A DNA stretch of 64,000 bases from Bacillota bacterium (lineage in GTDB: Bacteria > Bacillota > Clostridia > Lachnospirales > Lachnospiraceae), in contig JAEYFP010000066.1 of NCBI GenBank assembly GCA_023402845.1, positions 5,215-69,214 of the forward strand, read 5' to 3'. Position 1 is the first letter of the stretch, and each line of letters opens with the position of its first letter. Positions 2,941 through 55,237 of the stretch are shown here, one piece after another. Position numbers and translations under genes: made by a program. A model generated the notes under the pieces. It did no database searches. It saw only the letters and a list, made by a program, of their open reading frames with translations, and was not told the DNA's origin.

Positions 2941-3063
2941 GAACAAAAGTGTGCTTCGCTCACTCTCACGGTCAAATACTCCGGCAGCACAGCTTTTGTT
3001 CCGCGCGCGCAGCTGCCCATTAAATTTTATTATATAGGTAATTCGAAGGAATTTCCTATATAA
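2941..3063 (-). repeat. Family A structured repeat, copy A1 (hairpin H3 + GC palindrome + long hairpin H4), inside the mgtA 5' UTR
   Basis: The reverse complement aligns almost base for base with 13009-13132 and 22108-22228. H3 is TTATATAGG..CCTATATAA; H4 is GAACAAAAGCTGTGCT...AGCACACTTTTGTTC. Confidence 0.85.
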
Positions 3064-3064
3064 C

Positions 3065-3088
3065 AAAAAAGCCGCCCCAATGGACGGC
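3065..3088 (-). terminator. Intrinsic terminator (attenuator) inside the mgtA leader
   Basis: The minus strand reads GCCGTCC-ATT-GGGGCGGC followed by TTTTTT. That is a 7-bp GC-rich stem plus U6, about 170 nt upstream of the mgtA start codon. Confidence 0.7.
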
Positions 3089-3252
3089 AGCAAATACACA
3101 GGCAAGAAACCATTAGCGTAAACGCACAATGGACAACAGACTGTAATATGCAACGGTACATTGGTTAGTATTCCCGCATTGGGGGTTGAAACTGTTTCTG
3201 GGACTTCGGGGTTTACCGTCCATTGTCTCACTTCCTTTCGATTTATAAATGT
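3089..3252 (-). promoter_or_regulatory. Structured 5' leader of mgtA with alternative pairings (candidate Mg2+-responsive attenuator)
   Basis: The minus-strand 10-mer CAATGGACGG (complement of 3216-3225) is complementary both to GTCCATTGT (complement of 3126-3134) and to CCGTCCATTG, which includes the 5' arm of the terminator (complement of 3078-3087). Confidence 0.5.
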
Positions 3253-12962: not shown

Positions 12963-13008
12963 TAGATAGCTTCCTGTGCCGTATGGCCGGGGGCTGTCTA
13001 ATTTTTTT
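12963..13008 (+). terminator. Intrinsic terminator after the Dabb gene
   Basis: The stem TAGATAGCTTCC...GGGGGCTGTCTA has an inner GCC/GGC pairing and is followed by ATTTTTTT. Confidence 0.55.
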
Positions 13009-13132
13009 GTTATATAGGAAATTCCTTCGGATTTCCTATATAACAAAATATTATGCGCAGCTACGCGCGCGGAACAAAAGCTGCGCTGTCGGAGTAAATG
13101 ATCGCGAGAGTGGGCGAAGCACACTTTTGTTC
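13009..13132 (+). repeat. Family A structured repeat, copy A2
   Basis: H3 is TTATATAGGAAATTCC-TTCG-GATTTCCTATATAA (13010-13042). Then comes the palindrome GCGCAGCT(A)CGCGCGC. H4 is GAACAAAAGCTGCGCT...AGCACACTTTTGTTC (13072-13132). Confidence 0.85.
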
Positions 13133-21840: not shown

Positions 21841-21880
21841 TAAACACTCCGTGCAGGATGCACACTCGCGCGTATAGTAG

Positions 21881-21940
21881 GATGTTGACTTTGTCAACCG
21901 CGCTCGGCGCTAGAGTTTGCCAAAGCAAACTCTTTATTCT
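21881..21940 (+). repeat. Family C modular hairpin repeat, copy C1
   Basis: GATGTTGACTTTGTCAAC-CGCGCTCGGCGC-TAGAGTTTGCCAAAGCAAACTCTTTATTCT. It is nearly identical to 22048-22107. Confidence 0.85.
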
Positions 21941-22047
21941 AGATTCATAGGAATGCAAAACAGACCGAAGCCGGCGCAGCCGGTTGAGGTGTCCTCTGAT
22001 TTGCATTCGCAGATAACTGCGAACTCCCGCCAAGAAATAAATGGTAC

Positions 22048-22228
22048 GATGTTGACTTTGTCAACCGCGCTCAGCGCGAAAAGTCTGCCAAAGCAAACTC
22101 TTTATTCTTATATAGAAATTCCTGCGGATTTTCTATATAAGAAAATTTTATGCGTAGCTGCGCGCGCGGAATAGAAGCTGTGCTGCCGAAGTATTTGGCC
22201 GAGAGAGAGCACGAAGCACACTTTTATT
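22048..22228 (+). repeat. Composite repeat: family C copy C2 fused to family A copy A3
   Basis: C2 is 22048-22107. A3 H3 is TTATATAGAAATTCC-TGCG-GATTTTCTATATAA (22108-22140). The palindrome GCGTAGCTGCGCGCGC follows. H4 is GAATAGAAGCTGTGCT...AGCACACTTTTATT (22169-22228). Confidence 0.85.
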
Positions 22229-22362
22229 TTGCATTCGCAGATAGCGGATGTTTCAATAAAAATCCCAATTTTCTCCTTGACAAATTTATCATTAGGCATC
22301 ATGCACAAAACCTAAAAAAATCTCTCAGAAAATCGAAAAAAAGGAATCTTAAATGAAAAAAG

Positions 22363-22433: not shown

Positions 22434-22605
22434 TAAAAATGAAAAAAATTAAGAAATATTTTGAACAAATGTTTTGGCGAAAAATAATAAAAAGCATAAT
22501 TTGTAAAAAAATTAAAAAAAGACCATTGACAAACGCCGTCGAAATATGCTAGAGGATTTTTGGAAAACCCGCGTTTCTGAGAACGGAGTGAACAGGAACA
22601 TACCC

Positions 22606-22780
22606 GGTTACTGTTCACGGGTGACATACACGACGTGTTTTTTGTGAGTGAAGCGAAGCGAAAGTCACAGAAAACCGGAGAATTGCAGCGCCAAAACGCT
22701 ATCTTTGCGTTTTGTGTGCATTGCATAGCGTATCGCTGGTCGCGGAACTGCTGTATTTTACAGTGGAGTGAACAGTAACC
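22606..22780 (-). mobile_element. Family B MITE-like element, copy B1 (inverted relative to B2 and B3)
   Basis: Perfect 13-bp terminal inverted repeats: GGTTACTGTTCAC (22606-22618) and GTGAACAGTAACC (22768-22780). The direct repeat CATACCCG lies at both borders (22599-22606 and 22780-22787). The interior is nearly identical to 24840-25012 and 47586-47759. Confidence 0.6.
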
Positions 22781-22819
22781 ATACCCGCCCGCAAAATACG
22801 GAAATTCAGTGTAATATAA

Positions 22820-24839: not shown

Positions 24840-25012
24840 GTTACTGTTCACTCCACTGCAAAATACAGCAGTTTTGCGACCAGCAACACGCTATGCGATG
24901 CACACAAAACGCAAAGATAGCGTTTTGGCACTGCAATTCTCCGGTTTTCTGTGACTTTCGCTTCACTTCACTCACAAAAAACACGTCGCATATGTCACCT
25001 GTGAACGGTAAC
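24840..25012 (+). mobile_element. Family B MITE-like element, copy B2
   Basis: GTTACTGTTCAC (24840-24851) and GTGAACGGTAAC (25001-25012). It is flanked by the near-identical direct repeats GTTTTTCCTAT and GTTTTCCTAT. Confidence 0.6.
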
Positions 25013-47585: not shown

Positions 47586-47759
47586 GGTTACTGTTCACTC
47601 CACTGCTAAATACAGCAGTTCCGCGACCAGCAACACGCTATGCGATGCACACAAAACGCAAAGATAGCGTTTTGGCGCTGCAATTCTCCGGTTTTCTGTG
47701 ACTTTCGCTTCGCTTCACTCACAAAAAACACGTCGCATATGTCACCAGTGAACAGTAAT
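47586..47759 (+). mobile_element. Family B MITE-like element, copy B3
   Basis: GGTTACTGTTCAC (47586-47598) and GTGAACAGTAAT (47748-47759). It starts 10 nt after the tex stop codon. Confidence 0.6.
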
Positions 47760-47857: not shown

Positions 47858-48040
47858 AAGGAAAATTCTTCGGGGTAGGTGTAATTCCTAGCCGGTGGTG
47901 AAGACGAAATGAGAAGCTGCTTTAAAAGCAGAGACTCATAGGCGTACAAGTCCGCGACCCGTATGTGCCAGAAAGGTGCACACGGTTGATTTGGTACAAT
48001 CCAAAACCGACAGTAAAGTCTGGATGAAAGAAGAAATGCG
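47858..48040 (+). promoter_or_regulatory. FMN riboswitch (RFN element)
   Basis: Conserved RFN blocks are present: TTCTTCGGGGTAGGTGTAATTCCTAGCCGGTGGT, AGTCCGCGACCCG, GATTTGGTACAATCCAAAACCGACAGTAAAGTCTGGATG, and a closing AGAAGAA. It lies upstream of a riboflavin transporter gene. Confidence 0.88.
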
Positions 48041-54919: not shown

Positions 54920-54947
54920 GGGTAGTGCATGGGCACTGCCTTTTTTA
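54920..54947 (+). terminator. Intrinsic terminator of the thioesterase gene
   Basis: GGTAGTGC-ATGG-GCACTGCC followed by TTTTTT. Confidence 0.7.
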
Positions 54948-54983
54948 TTATATAGAAAATTCCTCCGAATTTTTTATATAATA
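54948..54983 (+). repeat. Family A repeat, partial copy A4 (H3 hairpin only)
   Basis: ATTATATAGAAAATTC-CTCC-GAATTTTTTATATAAT, immediately after the terminator T-run. Confidence 0.65.
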
Positions 54984-55237
54984 AAATGCAAAAATGCAAC
55001 AAATGGATTTTAAAAGCTGAAAAGAATAAAAAATAAAAATAGATACAAGCATAATACACAAAAGAATGCAACAAATGATAAAAAATATCAATACAATTTG
55101 TGCAAAATTGCAGAAATATGCATATAAATCATCTTACTATTGTAAATGTGGCATAAATATGATATATATAATATATAAAATGCAAATATGCATTTAAACT
55201 ATTATATGTTCCAATTATGGAAAAAGGAGATGTTGTT

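Follow-up and report, generated by a model that had tools for sequence, protein, structure and literature searches.

Family A is a genuine family of non-autonomous elements, active now or until recently, whose members home to intrinsic terminators. Its copies target terminators, the boundaries of the inserted DNA have been located, and a short run inside the element (N'AAAA) is complementary to the T-tail in front of it. It is moderately probable that family A is a non-coding mobile element of about 123 nt that possesses neither terminal inverted repeats (TIRs) nor target-site duplications (TSDs), inserts in one orientation 3' of a T-tail, is moved by functions that it does not itself encode, and follows a single-strand guide logic like that of IS200/IS605.

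The window, which is the whole stretch of DNA that was analyzed (64,000 nt), was originally predicted to contain three full copies and one half copy. All of these are present, with boundaries that were moved by 1-2 bases once the empty sites had been mapped (Table 1). The predicted architecture of an AT-rich hairpin (H3), a GC palindrome (the GC box) and a long hairpin (H4) was also found. Each window copy does lie directly behind a hairpin and T-run and is co-oriented with it, with the hairpin before copy 3 being weak.

Window Copies and Anatomy of the Element

The family A consensus starts with H3 (TTATATAGGAAATTCC-loop-GGAATTTCCTATATAA). This is followed by N'AAAA, TTTTAT, the GC box (GCGCAGCTGCGCGCGCG), and H4 (GAACAAAAGCTGTGCT...AGCACACTTTTGTTC). 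Here N' is the base just 3' of H3 and N is the last base of the target. Across genera, H4 helix 2 is 97% paired and shows almost no variation. The fold of terminator plus element has a z of -7.2 as RNA and -6.8 as DNA, and in this fold the H3 helix is lengthened by the last five bases of the T-tail. The genes beside the window copies were identified through Pfam as a P-type ATPase, a Dabb protein, and an esterase. The site that is orthologous to that of copy 1 in the congener G001 (L132) is occupied too. A coding reading of family A was ruled out, as its lengths vary by non-multiples of three and it is without a ribosome-binding site. The TATAAT in H3 was ruled out as a promoter by its spacing, as judged by reading the sequence.

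Table 1. Family A copies, their docking sites, and the parts of copy 2 (window coordinates)
Feature	Position	Strand	Remarks
Family A copy 1, full length	2941-3063	-	Within the leader of a P-type ATPase (mgtA-like) gene
Docking site of copy 1, hairpin and T-run (gccgtccattggggcggc-ttttttg), directly 5'	3064-3095	-	
Family A copy 2, full 123-nt insert (TTATATAGG...CACTTTTGTTC)	13010-13132	+	Absent from G001:C37
Target of copy 2, the Dabb-gene terminator of the host, made up of a hairpin, a T-run and the last base N (G at 13009)	12963-13009	+	All of it, G13009 included, in the empty orthologous site G001:C37
H3 of copy 2, AT-rich near-perfect palindrome that begins at the element's first base	13010-13043	+	
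Guide-like CAAAA (N'AAAA) of copy 2, complementary to the T-tail TTTTG (13005-13009)	13044-13048	+	Fold and family-wide N:N' pairing
GC box of copy 2 (GCGCAGCTACGCGCGCG), short GC palindrome	13055-13071	+	Conserved in other genera
H4 of copy 2 (GAACAAAAGCTG.GCT ... AGCACACTTTTGTTC); last base of H4 is last base of element	13072-13132	+	Stem near-invariant across genera
Family A copy 3, full length; N' = G, target N = C at 22107	22108-22229	+	
Docking site of copy 3, weak hairpin (gtctgcc aaa gcaaac) and tctttattc; end of the family C repeat module	22085-22107	+	
H3-only copy, H3 and TAAAA, without GC box and H4	54948-54986	+	
Docking site of the H3-only copy, terminator hairpin, T-run and N (A at 54947)	54920-54947	+	

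Empty Sites and Mobility

One of the two readings first offered for family A was that of a small mobile element. This is borne out by presence/absence polymorphism at the orthologous terminators of a congener, where empty sites were found. Five clean pairs of empty and filled sites were identified between G000, the genome of the window, and the congener G001. The insert is 122-123 nt each time, begins with TTATATAGG, ends with GTTC or GTTA, and is placed directly 3' of a T-run and one base, N. No TSD was seen in these five pairs (0-1 nt ambiguity). There are no TIRs, as the 5' end (TTATATAGG) is not an inverted copy of the 3' end (CACTTTTGTTC). The T-run and N were ruled out as traveling parts of the element because both are host-encoded in the empty sites.

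The site of copy 2 is empty in G001:C37, with flanks that are 92-97% identical and a boundary ambiguity of 1 nt (T). The empty site reads ...ctaatttttttg/tgtagg, where the slash marks the point of insertion. The filled site reads ...tttttttg, then the insert TTATATAGG...CACTTTTGTTC, and then tgtagg. The reverse case is also found, as the G001 copies L127, L138, L154, and L143 correspond to empty sites in G000.

About 28 sites of G001 were mapped onto G000. Four are empty, eight hold the same resident, and 10 hold a resident of a different subfamily. The remainder are several decayed remnants and one site that contains a group II intron instead. Different subfamilies reside at 10 of the ~20 occupied terminators that G000 and G001 share. 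Within the genus, copy number is 0 in G004 and then at least 7, 26, and 46, up to about 100.

Docking at Intrinsic Terminators

G000 is a 4.46 Mb genome in 68 contigs with a GC content of 44%. An iterated nhmmer profile gave 128 matches, or about 100 loci once palindromic double matches were removed. Full copies number 53 and head-to-tail dimers 11, and many further copies are partial or decayed. A genome-wide census had been set beforehand as the test of whether terminators are targeted, and it shows docking far above chance. A stringent hairpin and T-run adjoins 50 of the 67 arrays with an intact 5' end. Among 19,757 random intergenic positions, 2.0% qualified under this test, and among TTTTN sites between genes the figure was 12%. 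A T-rich tail precedes 65 of these 67 arrays. Only 1 of 28 copies that are truncated at the 5' end adjoins a terminator. The gene upstream is co-oriented with the array in 48 cases and opposed in 13. Docking is not confined to G000; copies adjoin terminators in 43 of 55 cases in the genome itself, in 19 of 27 in congeners, and in 37 of 54 in other genera. The junction is base-exact in >90% of copies with an intact 5' end.

A stringent terminator-like site is present at ~529 genes of G000, and about one in ten of these sites is occupied by family A. The docked sites include regulatory terminators, namely riboswitch and leader attenuators, as well as gene ends. The copy at C14:29431 (G000:C14:29285-29560; L190:2286-2554) has a SAM riboswitch (RF00162) terminator on one side and the start codon of metK on the other. 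In the ON state, this copy must be part of the transcript. Another example is window copy 1, in the leader of the ATPase gene. Docking at such regulatory terminators argues that the terminator itself is recognized, rather than that insertions are tolerated at gene ends.

The top strand of the element is the G-rich strand (the lagging-strand template) in 87% of arrays, compared with 78% for terminators generally. There is no significant excess of replication-strand bias beyond that of terminators (p = 0.11).

Complementarity Between the T-Tail and N'AAAA

Among 136 non-tandem copies, drawn from several genera, N is the Watson-Crick complement of N' in 105, compared with 51.9 expected, where orthologous insertions across species are not fully independent. 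The chi-square p for this excess is ~2e-33, and the observed value was reached in 0 of 20,000 permutations. The first base of the element was set from empty sites and dimer junctions. For minor subfamilies, the boundary was placed by rule (start = 6 nt before AGG). Position -2 is enriched for pairing too, positions -3 to -5 are mostly T:A, and no signal is found beyond -5. The H3 palindrome continues into the flank. With the N:N' pair and the next four positions being mostly T:A, the T-tail lengthens the H3 helix by 5 bp. At locus L089, an odd tail (TTTTAATCAT) is matched by an odd ATGATAA. The pairing is not obligatory, since N and N' are mismatched in 31 of the 136 copies, including the clean insertion L127 (A opposite C).

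It is somewhat unlikely that this complementarity is made after insertion and does not represent a targeting guide. Under this explanation, the element would insert behind any terminator T-run, and template switching in the quasi-palindrome of T-tail, H3, and A-run would then produce the match. Quasi-palindrome correction is an established mutational mechanism. N differs between G000 and G001 at 4-5 of ~20 orthologous occupied sites with flanks that are 94-99% identical, so some of the complementarity could be post-insertion. At L150/C32:257200 and L131/C40, the N of each genome fits the N' of its own resident, and at L132/C41:8290, N' differs (C vs T) opposite the same N. However, the five clean empty sites all have N in place, and in four of them it already complements the copy that inserts there. 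In addition, N' is tied to subfamily markers, for example N' = C with AAAATATTAT, which indicates that N' is inherited and not set at each site. The second copies of tandems are also rich in N' = G (11 of 31, or 35%, vs ~15% overall), even though the C of GTTC that this base faces is fixed in the upstream element. Post-insertion correction in the quasi-palindrome, or repeated turnover, probably contributes to the complementarity.

Tandem Copies and Decay

Dimers join as GTTC/TTATATAGG without any spacer. In the C34 dimer, it is the downstream copy that is extra; it lies after the GTTC of the resident and is missing in G001. The element's own 3' end (the H4 hairpin and TTTTGTTC) is thus also a target, and this accounts for the zero-spacer head-to-tail tandems.

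Many short copies lack the interior of H4 but retain both termini. Where H3 is missing, the copy begins with TTTTATGCGC right behind the terminator hairpin. Such a loss of H3 would fit a deletion between the TTTTAT repeats that flank it. The H3 loop is inverted in a few copies, as is expected of a DNA palindrome.

Proposed Mechanism and the Mobilizing Enzyme

Insertion may take place on a folded single-stranded nucleic acid. The T-tail would pair with the internal A-rich guide (N'AAAA) and stack on H3. This would bring the target's 3' end and the element's first base together in a continuous helix with a nick, to be joined by an enzyme that acts in trans. Copies lie behind terminators at the ends of genes, behind attenuators of riboswitches and leaders, behind other repeats that end like a terminator, and behind the 3' end of the element itself. 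After insertion, copies would decay via deletions in and around the hairpins, and residents could be replaced at the same terminators. Both the joining step, which would be single-stranded and guide-splinted, and the class of the enzyme are inferred. The logic would be the 'peel-and-paste' of IS200/IS605, with a guide borne by the element that pairs with the target.

Family A appears to work most like an IS200/IS605-type element, and it has its niche in common with group IIC introns. The original prediction had likened it to some IS elements and to class C group II introns. This likeness is apt, as both IIC introns and IS200-like elements use the same sites. IS200/IS605, PATEs, and REP/BIME with RAYT resemble family A in possessing hairpins at both ends and no TIR or TSD (PMC5934647, PMC5027513). 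Insertion of the IS200/IS605 group is also strictly oriented and occurs 3' of a short target that is paired to an internal guide (PMC5934647, PMC5027513). IS608, for example, selects its target through pairing to a guide inside the element (PMC5934647). Together with the docking of IS200-like elements of Lachnospiraceae relatives behind terminator T-tails, this gives a proof of principle for the class of mechanism proposed here. A target-like 3' end of its own is another trait that family A shares with IS200/IS605. Family A differs in that most of its host genomes are without a Y1 or RAYT gene and in that its hairpins are flush with its ends, not subterminal. The guide of family A is 3' of the left hairpin and is a plain Watson-Crick extension of the stem, whereas the guide of IS608 is 5'.

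It is unlikely that family A is a deletion derivative (PATE/REP-like) of IS200/IS605 that is moved in trans by a Y1 HUH transposase missing from most assemblies. The hairpins at both ends, the lack of TIR and TSD, and the oriented insertion 3' of a short guide-paired target would fit such an origin. IS200-like elements of the same bacterial family also dock at the same type of site. All seven IS200-like (Y1) elements examined from Lachnospiraceae relatives (L121, L122, L123, L167, L168, L198, and L200) are directly behind a terminator hairpin and ...TTTGT. In L198, the right end of the IS is directly followed by an H4-only fragment of family A, which is outside the right-end hairpin of that IS. 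However, Y1_Tnp (PF01797) was found in only 5 of 17 element-bearing genomes. It is missing in the other 12, isolates included, and is absent from G000, G001, and G003. There has been recent turnover between G000 and G001 though neither encodes Y1. No trace of IS200-like DNA, including LE or RE fragments, was found in G000, contig ends included. The LE and RE hairpins of the resident IS200-like elements (ACCACCGG...) are unrelated in sequence to H3 and H4. TnpB was found in 0 of 10 element-bearing genomes tested.

Other candidate enzymes were also explored. The IS110 DEDD transposase (PF01548) is present in 14 of 18 genomes with family A and in 9 of 14 without it, and shows no co-distribution with the element. 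There is no shared core dinucleotide, which is the IS110 criterion, at the L127 and L138 junctions. RVT_1 is patchy; it is absent from G002, G034, and G035 and is only a fragment in Kineothrix, which has many copies of family A. Thus none of Y1_Tnp, TnpB, RVT_1, and the IS110 transposase follows the distribution of family A. An autonomous IS with the same ends (H3...ORF...H4) was not found in G000 or in 108 public loci, where no copy had an ORF at its flank. For G000, these absences are weaker than they would be in closed genomes, as it is a draft assembly with a smallest contig of 3.2 kb and most of its breaks at multi-copy IS. A 2-kb conserved block upstream of one copy was ruled out as a partner, as it is glmS. 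The multi-copy ORFs of G000 were ruled out because they are not transposases.

A sister repeat is present in G000 at C3:259480-259640 (L189) and C68:4520-4605. It has an H3-like 5' hairpin (CGTATAGGA...TCCTATACG) and ATGAAAA, the latter matching the tail TTTTCAT, and it has a different 3' module, ending with GAATCCCGCAGGCGGGATTCTTTCTTA. With an H3-like hairpin joined to another 3' module, the ATAGGA hairpin and A-run look like a shared docking module. It can be suggested tentatively, as something possible rather than probable, that family A and its sister ATAGGAA-hairpin modules represent an undescribed class of guide-bearing mini-transposons, which would home to intrinsic terminators through the pairing of a 5-nt guide, beside a flush terminal hairpin, with the T-tail. 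Their mover would be neither Y1, TnpB, nor a group II intron RT, and could be a new recombinase or a co-opted host ssDNA enzyme.

Distribution and Comparison with Named Repeats

A pattern scan identified the H4 module in >108 loci of Lachnospiraceae genomes. The hosts include Kineothrix alysoides, Maccoyibacter intestinihominis, strain 1XD42-54, and MAGs labeled Roseburia or Eubacterium. In these genomes H3 varies (for example, TGTAATAGGAAAGTGCTCCTATTACA) and extra mini-hairpins are present, with the GC box and the H4 stem being near-invariant. A covariance model of the 3' module matched in 8 of 251 Lachnospiraceae genera sampled, which is a patchy distribution.

Family A is not a member of any named family tested. 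No family was found in Rfam at gathering or permissive thresholds, where only spurious hairpin matches far below threshold were returned. No matches came from BLAST searches of phages and plasmids or from scanning viral contigs for the pattern. Neither a named family nor a paper that contains the sequence turned up in the literature, which was searched by topic and with sequence strings.

The SPRITE, BOX, and RUP repeats of Streptococcus pneumoniae are small, non-coding, and modular, and are enriched at gene 3' ends. No transposase is known for BOX or SPRITE (PMC3049150). Family A resembles these in being a small, multi-copy, modular, non-coding repeat of Firmicutes. SPRITE, however, is itself terminator-like (AAAA-stem-TTTT) and has no known empty sites, whereas family A lies behind an existing terminator and its empty sites have been mapped. 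BOX and RUP have TIRs and TSDs, and family A has neither. Classical MITEs (Correia, ERIC, bcr1, and others) are likewise small, high-copy, and intergenic, and show presence/absence polymorphism. Family A differs from these in the lack of TIRs, TSDs, and a related autonomous IS with the same ends.

It is quite improbable that family A is an RNA module, such as a second terminator, a 3'-end stabilizer, or an sRNA, that persists only in places where it helps or does no harm, so that its position would reflect selection and not targeting. As an added property of a mobile element, however, the second reading first offered, that of a transcribed 3'-UTR or sRNA module, may apply. A role of this type has been proposed for REP, SPRITE, and similar repeats (PMC3049150). 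The T-tail, H3, and A-run followed by TTTTAT do resemble a terminator, with a long hairpin and a U-run, and many G-U pairs are tolerated in the inner H4 helices. However, selection would spread the distances between terminator and element, and the junction is base-exact. Copies are also behind attenuators within 5' leaders, and their presence differs between close relatives. Covariation does not favor an RNA structure either, as the outer stem of H4 is invariant and the proposed inner helices do not exceed shuffled controls.

Other Elements at the Same Sites

Three unrelated types of element, IIC introns, IS200-like elements, and family A, were found at the same base position. That IIC introns land at intrinsic terminators was known before; in some gut Lachnospiraceae, three types of element compete for exactly one base position. 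IIC introns home to terminators in the direction of transcription, right after the T-rich tail, with short pairing to the last bases of the target (PMC4424553). Family A is similar in its sense insertion directly behind intrinsic terminators, and both use the same sites in G000. Family A differs in being only 123 nt, with no ribozyme domains, no RT ORF, and no Rfam intron match at a permissive threshold at which the true introns of G000 were detected.

Group II introns of G000 are found directly after T-tails, for example cccctttgtt/GTGTGCCCGG after metK. A multi-copy IIC-type intron (5' GTGTGCCCGGTGGGCACACG) is present at G000:C14:30880-32791 (L190) and at the contig ends C55_L and C66_L. At the C55 intron site, the orthologous terminator in G001 (L155) holds family A. 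Another group II intron (RF02003, RF00029; 431-aa RT) was identified at G000:C3:257570-259480 (L189, minus strand) within the H3 of a family A copy, as TTATATAGGA/intron/AATTCCTCCG.... This arrangement is repeated in G001:C7 (L142). It is very improbable that family A is retro-mobilized by the machinery of such introns, since this would fit the known targeting of terminators by IIC introns (PMC4424553), the shared sites, and the intron inside H3, but not the small size without ribozyme domains, the patchy RVT_1, or the precise ends and the internal deletions that keep both ends and resemble DNA slippage, not incomplete reverse transcription.

The minimal size of family A and its readable variable guide base make target choice by base pairing directly testable and provide a handle on the enzyme. 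Butyrate producers carry copies within their riboswitch and leader regions and where operons end. The copies also break assemblies and make fake ORFs that annotation pipelines will call.

Several other repeats were observed. Most of the 68 contig breaks of G000 are explained by three distinct elements of the IS110 family, one of which has at least 12 copies, and by several other IS. Internal IS110-family copies are present at C32:253877-255613, C11:35370-36995, and C51:4871-6323. Another IS (end ...GGTTAGACCCCTACCCGA-TA) interrupts H3 in a family A copy that lies a short way upstream of the window, at C41:126. An unrelated repeat of ~175 nt, family B, is present in the window at 22601-22784 (-), 24840-25011 (+), and 47587-47758 (+), with 93-96% identity. 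An FMN riboswitch (RF00050, 85 bits) was identified at 47862-48039 (+). Family C, a 37-nt direct repeat (ATGTTGACTTTGTCAACCGCGCTC.GCGC), is present at 21874-21910 and 22041-22077, upstream of copy 3. Its module is also found behind an H3-like hairpin at G000:C26:55662.
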